Shown here in pieces: positions 41,939-49,322 of a stretch of DNA of 64,000 nt; the stretch's first letter is position 1; the number at the start of each line of letters is the position of its first letter. This stretch comes from an uncultured bacterium (GTDB lineage: Bacteria > RBG-13-66-14), in the NCBI GenBank assembly GCA_964436465.1, contig CAYTCV010000006.1:523-64522 (forward strand), given 5' to 3'. Both the position numbers and the translations under genes were made by a program. The notes beneath the pieces are model-generated. The model saw only the letters and a list, made by a program, of their open reading frames with translations, made no database searches and was not told the DNA's origin.

Positions 41939-42262
41939 CTACGGCGACGGCTGGGGGTTCATGGAGATGCGGCCGTGCAGGTCGTCGGGAGCCAGGAGGA
42001 CCAGGATAACCTTGCCGTCCCGGCTCAGGTTGGCCGTGGTCAGCGTCACCTCGGTGTAGTCGAACCGGGGCAGCAACTTCTGGATGGTCTCCAGCTGGGC
42101 CGTGGTGAACTCGACGACCGCGCCCCGCCCCTTGGCGTTGTTGACCGCGTTGAGCTGGGCGTTGGTTAGCGTGAGGGTGACCTCGTACCGCCGGTCCTCG
42201 GCCCATGAAACGGCCACGAGGACGAACAGCAGCGCCACGATTAAGAATTTCGCGACTTTCAT
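41939..42262 (-). CDS. Small secreted protein, paralog 1 (107 aa)
   Basis: Signal peptide MKVAKFLIVALLFVLVAVSWA; 45% identical to the gene at 42437-42763; C-terminus ...NPQPSP. Confidence 0.6.
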   Translation of the reverse strand: MKVAKFLIVALLFVLVAVSWAEDRRYEVTLTLTNAQLNAVNNAKGRGAVVEFTTAQLETIQKLLPRFDYTEVTLTTANLSRDGKVILVLLAPDDLHGRISMNPQPSP

Positions 42263-42436: not shown

Positions 42437-42763
42437 CTAGGGAGAAGGCTGCGGGTTGGCCTCGAAGAGCCGTCCGCGCGCGTCGTCTAACACCTGGATG
42501 ACGAGCAGGATTTTACCGCTCCGCCCGATGATGGCGGATGTCAGCGTCATCTCGGTCAGGTCGAAATCCGACACGACGTCCTTGATGGCGGTGAGCTGGG
42601 CCGCGGTGAATTTCACGACGACATTCCGCCCGTAGCCGCCCTTGACCGCCTTAACCTGCTCGTTGGTCAGGTCGAGTGTCACCTCGTACCGTTTCTCCTC
42701 GGCCCAGGCGACGAGGACGACAAGCAGGAGCAGCACCACTATCAGGTATCTCGAAACGTTCAT
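42437..42763 (-). CDS. Small secreted protein, paralog 2 (108 aa from MNVSRYL)
   Basis: Start chosen by alignment to paralog 1; signal peptide MNVSRYLIVVLLLLVVLVAWA. Confidence 0.6.
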   Translation of the reverse strand: MNVSRYLIVVLLLLVVLVAWAEEKRYEVTLDLTNEQVKAVKGGYGRNVVVKFTAAQLTAIKDVVSDFDLTEMTLTSAIIGRSGKILLVIQVLDDARGRLFEANPQPSP

Positions 42764-42809
42764 CGTATCCCCCTCCTGTGTTTCCATTCTGCTTCTCATC
42801 GATTGATAC

Positions 42810-42839
42810 ATAATAGACGGAAGTCGGGCGGAACGTCAA
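42810..42839 (-). promoter_or_regulatory. Sigma70-like promoter for paralog 2 (TTGACG-18-TATTAT)
   Basis: A duplicate of the paralog 1 promoter/leader, with about 85% identity over about 70 nt. Confidence 0.5.
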
Positions 42840-42899: not shown

Positions 42900-44300
42900 T
42901 CAGAGGGTGAAATACCCCGCCGTGTCGTGGGCGTATCCTGTGGGGAGGAAGGCGCCGGTGGCCTCGTCCTGCGTGTATTCGAGCCGCGGGCCTTTTTCCG
43001 CCAGGCGCGCCAGCTCGGCGAGGAAGTGGGAAACATCCTCCTCGTCGTTGTAGATACCAAGGCTGGCCCGCACCATGCCGGGAATGCGGCGCCGGTCGCC
43101 GGCCAGCATCTCCCCCGTTTTCCGGGTTAAATTTTCCCCCGTGAGAGATAACAGCTCGAAGACGTAGGGCTGGGTGCAGAAGCAGCCGTTGCGGACCCCT
43201 ATTCCCCCCTCGAAGGCCAGGACGGCGGCGACGAGCGGATGCGGTATGCCCTCGAGATTGAAGCTGACCACCCCCAGCCGCCCCTCGGGCGCCGTCGTAT
43301 CGGGCGAGCCGTAGATGGTGACGCCGGGCACCGCGCGCACGCCGTCGAGCAGCCGTTTCGTCAGTTCCAGCTCGTGGCGCCGGATGGCGTCGAATCCGAT
43401 GGCGAGCAGGGCCTTCGCCGCCGCAGCCATGGCGACTGCGCCGACGACGTTGGGCGTGCCGGCCTCCAGCAGGCCGGGCATGTCGGCCCACACTACTTCC
43501 CCGCGGGTGACGAGCTTCACCGTGCCGCCGCCCCGGCAGGCCGGACCACAGGAGCTGAAAGCGTCCTTCCGTCCGATGAGCGCCGCGCCGCCGTACGGGG
43601 CATACATCTTGTGCCCGGCGATGACGACGTAGTCGAGATGCGCCCCCGGCTCGCCGGGTTCCATTTGGATGGGCATGTGTGGGGCGAGCTGGGCGCCGTC
43701 CGCCAGAATCCGCACCCCGTTCGCGTGGGCGATTTTCGCCAGCTCGTGAATCGGGTACACCTGCCCGGTGACGTTGCTCGCCCCGCTGACCGCCATGAGC
43801 GCCAGACGTCCGGAGAGGCCCTCCACCAGCTTGCGCGTGGCCGCCAGGTCGACGGCGCCCCCCGCGGAAACGGGAAGATACTTGAGCTCGGCGTACCGCC
43901 GCCAGGGCAGGTCGTTGGAGTGGTGCTCCAGCGGGCTTACCAGGACCACGGCATCCTCGGGGTAGGCCATCGAGCAGGCCAGCCGGTTGACCGCCTCGGT
44001 GGTGTTGCAGGTGAACACAGCGGTGTAGTCGCCGTCTCCGGCGCCGACGAAGTCGAGAATGACCTCGCGCGCCCGCTCGTAGGCGTGCGTGGCCACGGCG
44101 CTCTTGAAGCCGGTGCCGCGGTGGATGGAGGAGTACCAGCCGACTAGCTCGTTAACCTTGTCCCGCACCGGGGCCAGGGCCGGGGTGCTGGCGGCGTTGT
44201 CCAGATAGACGTACCGTCGTGTTCCGCCCGTGGCCAGTGGAACTTGTTTATCCCACCCGACCACGTGCTCGCGGATGGTGGCCAGTGATAATTCCGACAA
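42900..44300 (-). CDS. Class V aminotransferase-fold PLP enzyme (cysteine desulfurase-like)
   Basis: YLDNAASTP...; VIAGHKMYAPYG, a candidate PLP-Lys; size and layout like SufS/NifS-like enzymes. Confidence 0.75.
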   Translation of the reverse strand: MSELSLATIREHVVGWDKQVPLATGGTRRYVYLDNAASTPALAPVRDKVNELVGWYSSIHRGTGFKSAVATHAYERAREVILDFVGAGDGDYTAVFTCNTTEAVNRLACSMAYPEDAVVLVSPLEHHSNDLPWRRYAELKYLPVSAGGAVDLAATRKLVEGLSGRLALMAVSGASNVTGQVYPIHELAKIAHANGVRILADGAQLAPHMPIQMEPGEPGAHLDYVVIAGHKMYAPYGGAALIGRKDAFSSCGPACRGGGTVKLVTRGEVVWADMPGLLEAGTPNVVGAVAMAAAAKALLAIGFDAIRRHELELTKRLLDGVRAVPGVTIYGSPDTTAPEGRLGVVSFNLEGIPHPLVAAVLAFEGGIGVRNGCFCTQPYVFELLSLTGENLTRKTGEMLAGDRRRIPGMVRASLGIYNDEEDVSHFLAELARLAEKGPRLEYTQDEATGAFLPTGYAHDTAGYFTL

Positions 44301-44943: not shown

Positions 44944-44972
44944 GTCGGATGATAAAAAAAGGTGGGGTCATC
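44944..44972. terminator. Bidirectional rho-independent terminator
   Basis: AAAAAAAGGTGGGGTCATCCCACCTTTTCT lies between convergent genes. Confidence 0.6.
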
Positions 44973-44981
44973 CCACCTTTT

Positions 44982-46583
44982 CTATGCCGGTGCGCTACAG
45001 GTGACGTTTCCGTCCTCCTGCAGGAGCAGGGGACAGCCGCCGCCGCACAGGGGGAACTCGGCGCACTGGCGGCACTCGTCGGGGACCCAGTCCCGGTTGC
45101 GCAGGCTCACCGCCAGGGGGCTGTTCCAGATTTTCCCCCAGTCATCGGTGAGGATGTTGCCCATGACCTCGTAGTAGCTCTGGCAGGGCAGCACGTCGCC
45201 GTTGGGCTCCACGGCCAGGTTGTACTTCGCGGCGGAGCAGGTCTTTATCCCCACGCCCAATTCGAGCGGATTGAGTTCCTCGTAGCGCGTCGGGGTGTAC
45301 CACAGGAAGTTCAGCCCGCGCGAGACGGCGGCGGAGAAGAACTCCTCCACGTAAGGCACCAGCTCGGCCTCGGTGAAGGCGTCGGGGTTGCCTTTCCCCT
45401 TGCCGGAGTGAATCATGCCGTTGGCCGCCACCTGGGACAGCCCCAGGTCGGCCAGGAACTCCACCGTCCGCCGGAGATGGTCGGCGTTGCGCCGGGTGAT
45501 GGTCGTGTTCGTCAGGACGTAGAGCGGCTGCGCCAGGGCGTTCTTGATGCCCTGCACCGTTTCCTGCCAGGCCCCGGGAGCCCCCACCATGGCGTCGTGC
45601 ACCGCCTCGTCACAGCTCTCCAGCGTGATTTGCACGTGGTCCAGCCCCACCTCGACCAGCCCGGCCAGGTAGTCCTTGTCGGCCAGCTTGCGCCCGTTGG
45701 TCAACAGGCCGGTCACCAGGCCGATGTCCTCGGCGTACTCGATGAGCTCCCGCAGGTGGGGGTAGAGGGTGGCCTCGCCGCCGGTGAAGGTCACGTGGGG
45801 CACCCCGGCCTCCCACAGCTTTTCCATGACCCGGCGCCAGTCCTCCTTGGCCAGGGACGCCTTCCCCCGGTGCCCGGGGTCCACGTAGCAGTGGCCGCAG
45901 TCGGAGTTGCAGGCGTAGGTGAGAACGAGGTCCACCCGGTAGGGGGCGAAGGTCTCCACGCTGAACGGCTCGTAGCGGTCGAGGTCGAGGTAGGTCACGG
46001 GGCAGACGTCGCCGCCGCGGGCCAGCTCGGTGATGATGCGGAATATTTCCCGGTAATCGGCGAGGGCGATTTTCTTCGGGACGCTGTACCGGGCGGTTAT
46101 TTCCCGGACGGCGTCCCGGGGCGTGCGCTCCTCGACGATGAGCTTGGCGTACTCGGCGGCGGTCTGGTTCAGGTGGATGATTTTCGCGGCGTTGACCACC
46201 AGGGTGCCGTTGCCCGAGGGCTCGATGCGCAGGTGGACCCGGTAGCCCTCCATGGCGTCGCCGGAGCGCAGGTGGTAAATGCCGGGCTTGAGCGGCTCGG
46301 GCCGCTTGAGAAAGGATTCGACGAGGTGATGTCGGGCGGGGTGGTCGGGGTCGGCCACCTGACGCCGGCGGCGCAGGGTCAGTAGCAGAAGGATTACCGA
46401 GGCGATGAGACCCGCGAGGCCGAGGCCGATGAAAAGCCAGTTGACGATGCCCATCGGCCCGCTCTCGGCGACCATCCGCCCCTCTTCGGACCCGAAGGAG
46501 ACGAACAGCCCGACGAGGCCGAGGCCGAGACCGACCACCGCCATCACTCCCACCAGGACGAAATCGAGAGCGCCCCTCTTCAT
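44982..46583 (-). CDS. Membrane-anchored radical SAM/SPASM-domain protein with N-terminal PqqD-like RRE domain
   Basis: Two N-terminal TM helices (residues about 10-70). RRE-like segment GYRVHLRIEPSGNGTLVVNAAKIIHLNQTAAEYAKLIVEERTPRDAVREITARYSVPKKIALADYREIFRIITELARGG (compare PqqD LNETAA...DV.EFL). Radical SAM CNSDCGHC (CxxxCxxC). C-terminal Cys-rich SPASM (CQSYY..., CRQCAEFPLCGGGCP). Confidence 0.85.
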   Translation of the reverse strand: MKRGALDFVLVGVMAVVGLGLGLVGLFVSFGSEEGRMVAESGPMGIVNWLFIGLGLAGLIASVILLLLTLRRRRQVADPDHPARHHLVESFLKRPEPLKPGIYHLRSGDAMEGYRVHLRIEPSGNGTLVVNAAKIIHLNQTAAEYAKLIVEERTPRDAVREITARYSVPKKIALADYREIFRIITELARGGDVCPVTYLDLDRYEPFSVETFAPYRVDLVLTYACNSDCGHCYVDPGHRGKASLAKEDWRRVMEKLWEAGVPHVTFTGGEATLYPHLRELIEYAEDIGLVTGLLTNGRKLADKDYLAGLVEVGLDHVQITLESCDEAVHDAMVGAPGAWQETVQGIKNALAQPLYVLTNTTITRRNADHLRRTVEFLADLGLSQVAANGMIHSGKGKGNPDAFTEAELVPYVEEFFSAAVSRGLNFLWYTPTRYEELNPLELGVGIKTCSAAKYNLAVEPNGDVLPCQSYYEVMGNILTDDWGKIWNSPLAVSLRNRDWVPDECRQCAEFPLCGGGCPLLLQEDGNVTCSAPA

Positions 46584-46586
46584 GTT

Positions 46587-46988
46587 TTACACATACCCTT
46601 CGGGGTCGGTCACCAGGACGCACCGACCGTGAACCAGGCTCGCCCCGGCCTCCTCGGCCAACCGGACGACCGCGGAATCTTCGGCGCCCGGCTGCGTCCA
46701 AAACACTTTGACTCCCAGCTCCAGCGCCTCCCGCATCACCGCGGCGGTCCGCGGGGGCGGGGTGATGAAAATCACCGCGTCGGGCCTCTCCGGCAGCCCG
46801 GCCAGCGTCGGGTAGCACCGGTCGCCGTCGATTTCAGCGGCCTGCGGGTTCACGGGGTAGACCGTGTACCGGCCCAAAGATTTCAGGCGGCGGTAGACCC
46901 TGGAGCCGTACTTGCGTTTGTCGCGGCTGGCCCCGGCCACGGCGATGACCTTCGAACGGAAGAACGCGGCTATATCCTCGCGGGTCAA
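46587..46988 (-). CDS. CoA-binding domain protein (YccU-like), probable TTG start overlapping the upstream stop (TTGA)
   Basis: KVIAVAGASRDKRKYGSRVYRRLKSLGRYTVYPVNP...GDRCYPTLAGLPERPDAVIFITPP. The first 240 codons of the ORF-table entry lie in the overlapping frame of the upstream gene and are rejected. Confidence 0.55.
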   Translation of the reverse strand: MTREDIAAFFRSKVIAVAGASRDKRKYGSRVYRRLKSLGRYTVYPVNPQAAEIDGDRCYPTLAGLPERPDAVIFITPPPRTAAVMREALELGVKVFWTQPGAEDSAVVRLAEEAGASLVHGRCVLVTDPEGYV

Positions 46989-47866
46989 ATCCCGTGCAGG
47001 AGCCGGCCGCCCAGCTCCTCGGGCAGACCGGCGGCAATGATGCGCTCCGCGGCCCGCGGGATGTCGTAGGACACGCGGTGCAGCCGAATCATCAGGTTGC
47101 GGAAGCCGGGCGTGAACTCCAGCGTGGCGCAGCAGCTCTTGGGGTTGCCGTCCCGGGACTGGCCCACGCTCCCCATGTTGATGATGTAGCGGCGGAAGAT
47201 GCTCGGGACGTGCTCCTCCTCGGTGATGACCTCCACGTAGCCGTCCTCGTGCTGCTCGAAGATGACCGGCTGGTGGCTGTGCCCGATGAAGCAGAATCCC
47301 ACTTCCAGGGCGTTGAAGGCCCGCTCGATTTCGCGCCGGTTCAACAGGTAGTGCCAGCGCTCCGGCTCGTGGGGGCTCGCGTGGACCAGCCGGAACAGGA
47401 CGGTTTTCGACTTCTTGTGCCGGATGGGCTGTCCGTCCTCGCCCGCGTCCATTCCCATGGGGAGCGAGGCGATGTAGTCCACGTTCTCGCGGGTGATGAC
47501 CTCGCGGGTCCAAAGAATCGCCCGCGCGGCGAAGGAGTTGAACAGATACTCGGCGCCGGGGGTGATGGAGACGTGGTCGTGGTTCCCCTTCACCGTCACG
47601 GTGGTGGTCTGGGCCAGGAAGGCGACCAGGCGTTCCGGGTCGCTCAGGTCGGTGGAGGCGAGGTACTCGAGGACCTCTTTCTTGGAAATCCGCTTGTCCC
47701 CCTCGGCGAACCGCACGATGTTCAGGCACTCGTTGGGGCAGGCCCCGTAGCCGACGATGTCGCCGCCGCAGTATAGCGCGCTCACCTCCAGGCGCCGGAG
47801 GTGGTCCAGCACCATGGCCAGCGCGTCGAGGTTGGCGTGGATGTCGGAGAAGAAGCCGACTATCAA
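46985..47866 (-). CDS. Metallophosphoesterase (calcineurin-like)
   Basis: FSDIHAN, GDIVGYG, GNHD and GHSHQP motifs. Confidence 0.75.
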   Translation of the reverse strand: MIVGFFSDIHANLDALAMVLDHLRRLEVSALYCGGDIVGYGACPNECLNIVRFAEGDKRISKKEVLEYLASTDLSDPERLVAFLAQTTTVTVKGNHDHVSITPGAEYLFNSFAARAILWTREVITRENVDYIASLPMGMDAGEDGQPIRHKKSKTVLFRLVHASPHEPERWHYLLNRREIERAFNALEVGFCFIGHSHQPVIFEQHEDGYVEVITEEEHVPSIFRRYIINMGSVGQSRDGNPKSCCATLEFTPGFRNLMIRLHRVSYDIPRAAERIIAAGLPEELGGRLLHGI

Positions 47867-47906: not shown

Positions 47907-48605
47907 TCAGAAAACGCCGCCCGCGGCGAGATTGCTCAGCCAGAACCAGCCGTAGTAGGCGTAGGACACGACCAGAGGGATTAAAAGGTTGTCCCAGCCG
48001 CCGGGGAGGAAAAGCTCCGCCAGCGTCCCCAGGGCGCCCAGGCCGAGGGCCAACAGGACGTTGGTGACGAGTCCGTGCACCCCCACCAGGGTAAGAACCA
48101 CGAAGACCACCACGGCGCTCGTGACGAACATCGCCAGCGTGCCGACGAGGGTCTTGGAGCCCACGAGCTTCGCCTTCCCCCACTTGTGGCCGAAAACCGC
48201 CGCGAGCCCGTCGCCCCACCCCAGGACGAGGATACCCATGACGGCCACGTAGCGGAAATCGCCGGCCCCGATATTCGTCAGCCACCAGAAGTGCCAGGTG
48301 AGAATCGAGAGGCTGACGGCGAAGAACACGGTGCCCGGGCTCTTGTCCCCCGATTCCATCCCCTTGAAGAGGTCGAGCTTCCAGGAGACGTAGTTGATGA
48401 CGATGAAGGAAAGCGGGCCGATAATCGCGAAGTACCAGTCGTGGAATATGAAGAAGGCGAGGATTATCCAGTTGCTCACCCCGATGTGGATGACCTTGCG
48501 CGCCGCCTCGCCGGAGATTTTTTCCTTCCGGGCCAGGACGCCCGCCGTGCCGACGACCGCGAAGACCGCCGCGTAGGAGACGGCCAGGGAAATCCACTGG
48601 TTCAT
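47907..48605 (-). CDS. CTP-transferase-1 superfamily membrane protein (CdsA/dolichol-kinase/phytol-kinase-like), paralog 1
   Basis: Polytopic; KVIHIGVSNW...GWGDGLAAVFGHKWGK is similar to the polyprenol kinase/CdsA C-terminal signature. Confidence 0.5.
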   Translation of the reverse strand: MNQWISLAVSYAAVFAVVGTAGVLARKEKISGEAARKVIHIGVSNWIILAFFIFHDWYFAIIGPLSFIVINYVSWKLDLFKGMESGDKSPGTVFFAVSLSILTWHFWWLTNIGAGDFRYVAVMGILVLGWGDGLAAVFGHKWGKAKLVGSKTLVGTLAMFVTSAVVVFVVLTLVGVHGLVTNVLLALGLGALGTLAELFLPGGWDNLLIPLVVSYAYYGWFWLSNLAAGGVF

Positions 48606-48617
48606 GGAGCCTCCTTG

Positions 48618-49322
48618 TTACGCCAGGGTGAGGATGAGGTATCCGCCCACGCCGGCCACGACGCCCGTGATGATGTTGTCGAGCTGAACCGGGCTCACCA
48701 GCTCGGCGAGACCGACCAGCGCCCCGAAGCCCACGGCGAGGAGGTAGGGAAGCCAGCCGGTGAAGCCGAAGATAACGCTCACGATGACGAACGCCGCGAT
48801 GCCTCCGAGCACCCCGGCCGCGGTGCCGATTTTCGACCGACCGCGCGGGAGCTCGCCTTTGCCGTATCTTCGGCCCACCATGGCGGCGAGGCTGTCGGCG
48901 AAGGACGAGGGTATGATACTGAAGGCGGCCAGGGGTCTCAGTTCGATGCCCCGCCCCAGGTCGGTGAAGAACCAGCCGATGAAGACCGAGACGCACAGAA
49001 CGATGACCATCGCCACGCCGCCGAACCTCCCCCGCTCCGCATCCACGCTCGCCAGCAGCCCGAACCTCATCGACAGGACGGTCAGGGCGAGGAAAAACAC
49101 CACCGGCGCCAGCACCCAGTACCAGTCCGTAAAGAGCCAGGCCGCGGCCAGGGTGCAGGGGGCCACGCCCAGGCCCACGATGTTCCGCGCTGAAAGGTCG
49201 GATATGAGGCCCCGGGAGCGGAACTGCTCGACGACGCCAATTACCAGGAAAACGTAGGCGACGATGTACGCGATGGAGTAAATCTGGGGGATGGGCGGGG
49301 TCACGGGCAGGTGCACGGTCAT
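48618..49322 (-). CDS. CTP-transferase-1 superfamily membrane protein, paralog 2
   Basis: SSFADSLAAMVGRRYGKGELPRGRSKIGTAAGVLGG; the same superfamily signature as the neighbouring gene. Confidence 0.5.
   Translation of the reverse strand: MTVHLPVTPPIPQIYSIAYIVAYVFLVIGVVEQFRSRGLISDLSARNIVGLGVAPCTLAAAWLFTDWYWVLAPVVFFLALTVLSMRFGLLASVDAERGRFGGVAMVIVLCVSVFIGWFFTDLGRGIELRPLAAFSIIPSSFADSLAAMVGRRYGKGELPRGRSKIGTAAGVLGGIAAFVIVSVIFGFTGWLPYLLAVGFGALVGLAELVSPVQLDNIITGVVAGVGGYLILTLA

Follow-up and report, generated by a model that had tools for sequence, protein, structure and literature searches.

Radical S-adenosylmethionine (SAM) enzymes that carry a SPASM domain and depend on a recognition element (RRE) for ribosomally synthesized and post-translationally modified peptides (RiPPs) are familiar chiefly from the biosynthesis of small secreted peptides and of cofactors. 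A 64,000-nucleotide stretch of DNA from an uncultured bacterium (GTDB lineage RBG-13-66-14; GenBank contig CAYTCV010000006.1, positions 523 to 64,522), referred to here as the window, encodes an enzyme of this kind that appears to be anchored in the membrane and has no precursor peptide gene beside it. Which substrate, then, could it modify? Comparison with a very large family of soluble relatives points to a candidate: a membrane protein that ends in a nearly invariant repeat of Cys and Ala. We put at roughly 55% the probability that the window enzyme acts on a protein with such a tail whose gene lies at another place in the genome.

Domain architecture and membrane anchor of the enzyme

The gene and its predicted parts have the following coordinates within the window:

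44982..46583, reverse strand: gene for the membrane-anchored RRE-radical SAM-SPASM enzyme (open reading frame, Pfam domains, and full-length close homologues at 69-95% identity)
46503..46571, reverse strand: predicted transmembrane helix 1, residues ~5-27 (hydropathy up to 2.56; model helix 5-27; hydrophobic throughout the clade)
46374..46451, reverse strand: predicted transmembrane helix 2, residues ~45-70, followed by RRRR (hydropathy up to 2.76; model helix 45-77)
46014..46298, reverse strand: PqqD-like RRE, residues ~96-190 (PF05402, 25.2 versus 23.4 bits; model; 17 family-invariant residues)
45384..45947, reverse strand: radical SAM core, residues ~213-400, with C225-x3-C229-x2-C232 (PF04055, 85.1 bits; Cys positions)
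44997..45248, reverse strand: SPASM domain, residues ~446-529, with a seven-Cys motif for two auxiliary [4Fe-4S] clusters (PF13186, 44.5 bits; Cys spacing)

The open reading frame (ORF) begins with ATG and encodes 533 amino acids. Pfam, hydropathy and a structural model bear out the domain order given in a first-pass annotation of the sequence, namely two transmembrane helices, a PqqD-like RRE, a radical SAM core and a SPASM domain. All three profiles score above their gathering cut-offs: PF04055 (Radical_SAM) at residues 220-377 with 85.1 bits against 29.5, PF13186 (SPASM) at residues 449-507 with 44.5 bits against 21.5, and PF05402 (PqqD) at residues 130-181 with 25.2 bits against 23.4, the last by a thin margin. 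Despite that margin the PqqD assignment is upheld, because the AlphaFold2 model (computed from 17 aligned sequences; mean predicted local distance difference test score, pLDDT, 75.7) places four beta-strands at residues 101-138 and then three helices at 140-189 (pLDDT 70-92), which is the layout of a RiPP recognition element; PF05402 matches are also precomputed for many homologues. By profile and model, this domain is a PqqD-like RRE and a putative peptide binder. The CxxxCxxC motif of the radical SAM core is formed by C225, C229 and C232, and the modelled core has alternating beta and alpha elements, as expected of a partial TIM barrel. The SPASM cysteines at positions 449, 467, 504, 507, 513, 517 and 529 make up a complete seven-Cys motif (C449-x12-G-x4-C467, C504-x2-C507-x5-C513-x3-C517, C529). 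A 478-amino-acid ORF on the opposite strand (44949..46385, forward) is an antisense shadow of this gene in 65% GC DNA and not a gene itself.

Among solved structures, the RRE-bearing peptide maturases SkfB, SuiB, PqqE and CteB are closest in both sequence and fold. SkfB is the best PDB match both by sequence (E = 5e-22) and by fold (E = 1e-16), SuiB is second by fold, and GDGT-MAS, a lipid-modifying radical SAM enzyme, is among the weaker structural matches. No NCBIfam equivalog comes near its cut-off for the window enzyme, and none covers the family: the best score is to PqqE (TIGR02109, 117.9 bits versus 381), and the others include MftC (TIGR03962, 95.8 versus 265) and the sactipeptide maturases SkfB (TIGR04403, 93 versus 300), AlbA (NF012164, 68 versus 850) and StsB (NF045574, 72 versus 625). 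PADLOC returned generic viperin-core similarity only. Profile, sequence and model comparisons support the view, already taken in the first-pass annotation, that the product is an RRE-bearing radical SAM/SPASM enzyme of the peptide-maturase type.

The fused membrane anchor of that annotation also stands. The two N-terminal hydrophobic segments (~8-30 and ~46-70; Kyte-Doolittle means over 19 residues of up to 2.56 and 2.76) are transmembrane-like and coincide with model helices at residues 5-27 and 45-77. The MKR that precedes the first helix and the RRRR that follows the second (R72 and R73 being invariant within the anchored clade) predict a hairpin with both ends inside, and hence a cytoplasmic RRE and catalytic part. 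The predicted anchor is translated and is not an over-extended gene call, since the stop codon of the upstream CoA-binding gene lies 3 nt before the ATG, every anchored-clade member carries the segment in frame and hydrophobic, and the segment's ratio of nonsynonymous to synonymous substitutions (dN/dS) is below 1 (0.40-0.88, versus 0.13-0.31 for the remainder of the protein). One homologue (P0107) is a single-helix variant of the enzyme.

A Cys-Ala tail protein and a three-gene cassette

Searches for homologues returned two groups: eight full-length relatives (530-534 amino acids, 69-90% identity), and thousands of proteins of ~455 amino acids at ~55% identity that align to residues ~88-533 only. 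Since the shorter proteins do not have the hydrophobic N-terminus, the window enzyme is a member of a small clade with an anchor, nested in a very large family of soluble proteins. Sampling one genome per GTDB species yielded at least 582 relatives. The best 80 loci, which we examined, come from Anaerolineae, Caldilineae, Dehalococcoidales, Planctomycetota, Edwardsbacteria, Coatesbacteria, Zixibacteria, Cloacimonadota, Hydrogenedentales and Zymogenaceae among the Bacteria and from Thermoplasmata and Bathyarchaeota among the Archaea; the family ranges over more than ten bacterial phyla and two archaeal groups, and only two of the 80 loci (L010, L011) encode anchored enzymes.

Directly upstream of the enzyme gene in the first two soluble loci inspected is a gene for a protein of ~555 amino acids that ends in ...CACACACAGCACACAGGGR. 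All 120 homologues compared, with an overall identity of only 62-69%, share this tail letter for letter, and the protein belongs to no family in Pfam (2025) or NCBIfam (June 2026). By tblastn, a homologue of the tail protein is encoded in 51 of the 80 reference loci; 11 loci have too little upstream flank, leaving 51 of 69 evaluable loci with a linked tail gene and 18 without. The stop codon of the tail gene lies within ~130 nt upstream of the enzyme start, on the same strand, in 41 of these 51 loci, and in three loci from Hydrogenedentales/Planctomycetia the order is reversed, with the tail gene immediately downstream. Enzyme and tail genes are paired in Chloroflexota, Planctomycetota, Zixibacteria, Coatesbacteria, Cloacimonadota, Hydrogenedentales, Thermoplasmata and Bathyarchaeota; the Thermoplasmata tails are identical to the bacterial one, and those of Bathyarchaeota read CVCACANCACACACVSCACACAGGGAR. 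An exhaustive profile search found 452 clusters of tail proteins (50% identity) at E <= 1e-30, and 136 of the 150 best cluster representatives keep the tail, the remainder being mostly fragments.

In its full form the tail is (Cys-Ala)n-Gly-(Cys-Ala)3-Gly-Gly-Gly-Arg, carried by a single-pass membrane protein of ~550 amino acids, and the conserved minimum is (CA)n>=3-GGGR at the extreme C-terminus. The model of the tail protein consists, in order, of a signal peptide, a beta-sandwich (residues 37-219, confidently modelled) that resembles ribophorin I/Ost1 and the N-domain of M1 aminopeptidases, a transmembrane helix, KRRK, a winged-helix/helical region, a pre-tail segment, a Ser/Gly linker and the disordered tail. 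The pre-tail segment is itself conserved (LPxLPGxxFA...F..GV..TNP; peptide LPTLPGADFANTVV...TNPPP). KRRK directly after the transmembrane helix predicts a tail that is cytoplasmic and close to the membrane. With its extracytoplasmic N-terminal domain, membrane span and low-complexity C-terminal tail, the protein is reminiscent of DUF2207 proteins, and 3 of 24 members have weak matches to DUF2207_C (best E = 6.6e-4), all under the Pfam cut-off. The tails of DUF2207 proteins are Gly-rich rather than Cys-Ala repeats, and to our knowledge these proteins are not paired with a radical SAM enzyme. Judging from gene linkage and conservation, the Cys-Ala tail is probably the family's conserved candidate substrate.

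A third protein completes the cassette. It has ~120 amino acids, two transmembrane helices, a cytoplasmic CxxC...CxxC zinc ribbon and an invariant C-terminal EEPKW, and its gene directly precedes the tail gene in 46 of the 52 loci that have one, archaeal loci among them (for example L004:5887-6258, and L013, L049, L070 and L086). Clustering of all flanking ORFs identified the zinc-ribbon gene as the sole further conserved gene, the next clusters occurring in at most 15 loci; only three genes recur, in the order zinc-ribbon protein, tail protein, soluble enzyme, and among them there is neither a protease nor another tailoring enzyme, nor a transporter. The zinc-ribbon protein matches no Pfam family above cut-off, and the cassette components have no specific match in Pfam 2025, NCBIfam June 2026 or PADLOC. 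Full-text literature searches on the tail motif, on DUF2207 and on the combination of RRE, SPASM and membrane segments, which do not extend to subscription journals, turned up no relevant paper, and no structure of any of the three components was found.

The anchored enzymes fall well within this family. Their identity to cassette-encoded enzymes (47-56%, and 47-57% to the soluble enzymes as a whole) is in the range of any inter-phylum pair in the family (44-57%), and in a neighbour-joining tree the anchored clade nests inside the family and not outside it. All invariant columns of the 17-sequence alignment are kept in the anchored clade, 17 of them in the RRE, and the RRE identity between anchored and soluble enzymes (0.46) is similar to that among soluble lineages (0.50); an RRE that diverges no faster is as expected if the recognised sequence is unchanged. 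On the strength of alignment and tree, we assign the window enzyme to the cassette family with high confidence.

Several peculiarities of the soluble enzymes came to light. Gene callers give some of them false N-termini (such as LCLCLRLRRL or VRVRVRWLRMRV) by reading the tail's (TGCGCx)n DNA, in a different frame, as part of the enzyme gene (P0083, P0091, P0109, P0117; also upstream of the enzyme start in L024, L027 and L049). Anchors in other tail-less lineages were considered and rejected, the N-terminal extensions there being gene-call artefacts or frameshifts, and outside the window's clade absence of the tail gene is not correlated with an anchor. One relative of 901 amino acids (P0104) is a tandem fusion, in which an intact RRE-radical SAM-SPASM enzyme is followed by a second RRE and a degenerate radical SAM-like module without CxxxCxxC.

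Candidate substrate and competing explanations

The absence of a nearby precursor peptide, remarked on in the first-pass annotation, extends across the window: a six-frame regular-expression search of the 64 kb found no ORF with Cys-X repeats, tblastn with six diverse tail proteins found no tail-protein gene in the window, and hmmsearch for the zinc-ribbon protein, run on six-frame ORFs, gave nothing below E = 0.6 in the window or at anchored-clade loci and no significant match at unlinked loci. Separation of enzyme and tail genes is not unique to the anchored clade. The tail gene is also missing from 16 soluble loci whose upstream flank measures 2.3 kb or more (mostly 5-10 kb). Five of these loci (L029, L030, L033, L041, L054) form a monophyletic clade from Anaerolineae/Chloroflexota, with neither tail nor zinc-ribbon gene within 10 kb on either side, which is, from its gene content, a second independent case. 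As for the lineage of the window, comparison of loci shows that the enzyme gene left the cassette, became the last gene of an operon and gained two predicted N-terminal transmembrane helices. The operon neighbours of the anchored clade were not found beside any soluble member, so no intermediate arrangement is apparent. Among the possibilities that the first-pass annotation listed for the substrate, family context favours one encoded elsewhere and one that is a membrane protein; the enzyme itself is no stand-alone oddity but an anchored offshoot, restricted to one lineage, of a very large soluble family.

On the Cys-Ala tail, the enzyme would act as follows: the RRE would bind the conserved segment just ahead of the tail in the fashion of a leader peptide; the SAM cluster would generate a 5'-deoxyadenosyl radical, which would take a hydrogen from a tail residue; and the auxiliary SPASM clusters would hold a Cys thiolate and accept an electron. 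The product could be a set of intramolecular thioether cross-links of the sactionine or ranthionine type. This chemistry is a guess, made by analogy and with low confidence; thioethers are favoured because SkfB and CteB make them with Cys-rich cores and twin SPASM clusters, and a cofactor-like or metal-binding product is also conceivable, given how extremely invariant the core is. The anchor would hold the enzyme against the cytoplasmic side of the membrane, at the site where a tail protein with its gene elsewhere would present its C-terminus, and may take the place of the zinc-ribbon adaptor. In its widest form, which we put forward tentatively and with some doubt, the proposal is that the cassette installs a previously unknown modification on a cytoplasmic tail in at least ten bacterial phyla and two archaeal groups, either poly-thioether or metal- or cofactor-forming and made from the invariant Cys-Ala repeat, and that the window enzyme is a trans-acting, tethered version whose anchor replaces the zinc-ribbon adaptor.

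Several points weigh against a Cys-Ala tail as the substrate of the window enzyme. No tail or zinc-ribbon gene lies in the 64-kb window or within up to 10 kb on either side in any anchored-clade locus, and the presence of a tail gene elsewhere in this genome is an assumption. The anchored clade has a conserved operon of its own, which hints at a different functional setting: in every anchored locus, down to 70% identity, genes for ketol-acid reductoisomerase (KARI), two membrane proteins and a metallophosphoesterase, as a rule with one for a CoA-binding protein, precede the enzyme gene. Residue 435 (columns ~445-447 of alignment A1) is Glu (RYE) in the anchored clade, whereas most soluble members have the Cys of TPTRYC there (in P0006 the Cys is two residues earlier, and P0036 has Arg), and the change may reflect a difference in auxiliary-cluster ligation. 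Constraint on the anchor is loose (dN/dS 0.4-0.9), which would fit a simple tether. That the anchor descends from the transmembrane hairpin of the zinc-ribbon protein, or replaces it, is an appealing idea without proof: each consists of a two-helix hairpin, but hhalign aligns the two end to end at a probability of only 49%, and hmmsearch gives E = 4-9. More generally, gene adjacency is no proof that the tail is the substrate, and the EEPKW end of the zinc-ribbon protein is an alternative target.

The same observations could mean that the anchored enzyme is a neofunctionalised paralogue that acts on a different membrane substrate, be it a membrane or exported protein or a lipid, in an organism that has no Cys-Ala tail protein. 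Such a change of function would account for the lack of a tail or zinc-ribbon gene within reach in the window or in about 12 anchored-clade loci, for a distinct operon context that is conserved down to 70% identity and for the loss of the RYC cysteine, and the appearance of lipid-modifying GDGT-MAS among the weaker structural matches agrees with it; it is nevertheless an unlikely explanation, given that the RRE is fully retained with no faster divergence, that the clade is no more divergent than other phylum-level lineages, that unlinked soluble members occur in otherwise ordinary lineages and that no other candidate substrate is conserved beside the gene. A separate explanation, in which the enzyme modifies no peptide and works with its operon neighbours (the CoA-binding protein, metallophosphoesterase, two membrane proteins and a SufS-like desulfurase) in a metabolic pathway at the membrane, would explain why the enzyme starts 3 nt past the CoA-binding stop, why synteny is kept across the clade and why the SufS-like gene is downstream in the subclade at 82-100% identity. 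We consider it very improbable: L007-L009 have no CoA-binding gene upstream, L005, L006 and L011 have no SufS-like gene, none of these neighbours stands beside soluble members, and an RRE speaks for a peptide or protein substrate.

Two further explanations keep the cassette and reassign the roles within it, and to each we give only a slim chance. The tail could give rise to a small cofactor that is redox-active or binds metal, like pyrroloquinoline quinone (PQQ) or mycofactocin, or to a prosthetic group bound to protein, with the enzyme carrying out the first radical step. Near-absolute invariance of the core over two domains of life is more like cofactor precursors than like the cores of antimicrobial RiPPs, and PqqE (118 bits) heads the NCBIfam scores, which also include MftC (96 bits), but both are far under the cut-offs, the three-gene cassette includes no conserved protease or tailoring enzyme, and the precursor would be fused to a large membrane protein. 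Alternatively, the zinc-ribbon protein could be the real target, for instance through a streptide-like Lys-Trp link in EEPKW, and the Cys-Ala tail a partner that binds a metal or cluster. Cys-X-Cys runs are typical of metal-binding sites, the zinc-ribbon neighbour is nearly as conserved as the tail protein and has an invariant C-terminus, and SuiB, the second-best structural match, is a Lys-Trp cross-linker; set against this, it is the tail gene and not the zinc-ribbon gene that abuts the enzyme gene in most phyla, 6 of 52 tail-bearing loci have no zinc-ribbon gene, and Lys and Trp are adjacent in EEPKW, unlike in KxxxW-type motifs. Modification of a Cys-Ala tail encoded elsewhere is the explanation that we prefer for the window enzyme.

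Genomic neighbourhood and relation to known systems

The enzyme gene is the last of an operon that also contains metG, KARI, two membrane protein genes, a metallophosphoesterase gene and CoA_binding_2. Two features flank it directly:

46587..47000 (start coordinate approximate), reverse strand: CoA_binding_2 protein gene (PF13380, 118 bits)
44953..44983, no strand assigned: bidirectional intrinsic terminator hairpin between convergent genes (sequence read; fold -22.5 kcal/mol, z = -3.2)

At the junction of CoA_binding_2 and the enzyme gene, the stop codon TAA is followed by AAC and the start codon ATG, leaving 3 nt between the genes. CoA_binding_2 is immediately upstream of the enzyme in L001, L005, L006, L010, L011 and L091-L095 and absent in L007-L009. 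In L007 and L008, which are 82% relatives, a Type_ISP_C fragment (L007:361-1167, L008:3750-4238) occupies its place, and in a 90% relative (L001:6339-9595, equivalent to L095) the restriction-modification genes N6_Mtase/Eco57I and Methylase_S are inserted between the metallophosphoesterase and CoA-binding genes. The metG, KARI, phosphoesterase and CoA-binding genes of the operon had been recognised in the first-pass annotation; its description of the two polytopic membrane proteins (47907..48605 and 48618..49322, both reverse strand) as CdsA-like is unsupported, as neither has a Pfam or NCBIfam match even at E <= 10. These proteins of 232 and 234 amino acids are paralogues with ~30% mutual identity and are found in the operon throughout the clade. 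As the operon neighbours are conserved only in the anchored clade, they offer no functional lead.

On the other side of the enzyme gene, the 51-nt gap to the convergent gene holds a 12-13 bp hairpin with A and U runs on either side (-22.5 kcal/mol, z = -3.2). A consensus terminator scanner gave no call on it; a hairpin of this strength with A/U runs argues for a real bidirectional terminator, as read in the first pass. Beyond the convergent gene, downstream of the enzyme, is a SufS-like cysteine desulfurase gene (42900..44300, reverse strand; TIGR01979, 267 bits, under cut-off), whose position beside the enzyme is conserved in the 82-100% identity subclade but not in the one at 70-73%. Two paralogous small secreted proteins (41939..42262 and 42437..42811, both reverse strand), with signal peptides, ~54% mutual identity and NPQPSP at both C-termini, have no Pfam or NCBIfam match, and the pair is conserved downstream of the SufS-like gene in L007, L009, L010 and L094.

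The system shares features with several known ones and coincides with none of them. Like the thioether maturases SkfB, CteB and AlbA, the window enzyme combines an N-terminal RRE, a radical SAM core and a twin-cluster SPASM domain, and its candidate substrate is Cys-rich; the substrate of those enzymes is a short secreted peptide, however, whereas here it would be the tail of a 550-amino-acid membrane protein. The cassette further differs from sactipeptide systems in having no transporter or protease and a core that is invariant over phyla, and the window member differs in being anchored; scores to the sactipeptide maturases are under cut-off, and the window has no short Cys-containing precursor. 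PqqE/PqqD and MftC/MftB likewise use a PqqD-type RRE and a radical SAM/SPASM enzyme on C-terminal residues of a precursor with a strongly conserved core, as proposed here for the candidate tail, but in the window enzyme the RRE is fused, and the core is a Cys-Ala repeat instead of Glu/Tyr or Val-Tyr; apart from the scores under cut-off, none of pqqA-D or mftA-F is among the neighbours of the window enzyme. QhpD, a radical SAM/SPASM enzyme, introduces thioether cross-links from Cys residues into a protein subunit, QhpC, the gamma subunit of quinohemoprotein amine dehydrogenase, and not into a leader-cleaved peptide. The acceptor residues and the protein context are different here, there are no quinoprotein dehydrogenase genes in the window or the cassettes, and QhpD is not among the top 25 NCBIfam matches. 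An anaerobic sulfatase-maturating enzyme is not indicated either, for the enzyme has an RRE and no neighbouring sulfatase, and the fold match to that class reflects the shared core only. No gene context of sulfatase or quinoprotein maturation was found.

What is new is a known type of enzyme with an undescribed family of candidate protein-tail substrates and, in the window, a membrane anchor; interest lies mainly in the wider cassette system to which the window gene led. The conserved partner is here the tail of a large membrane protein, with a core that hardly changes between Bacteria and Archaea, and the family holds at least 452 clusters at 50% identity. The anchored form, by its predicted topology, points to an enzyme that works at the membrane, and, if the substrate assignment is true, it would be a natural case of separated enzyme and substrate genes. 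If the tail is indeed the substrate, this family of enzymes would carry out a widespread and ancient protein modification.

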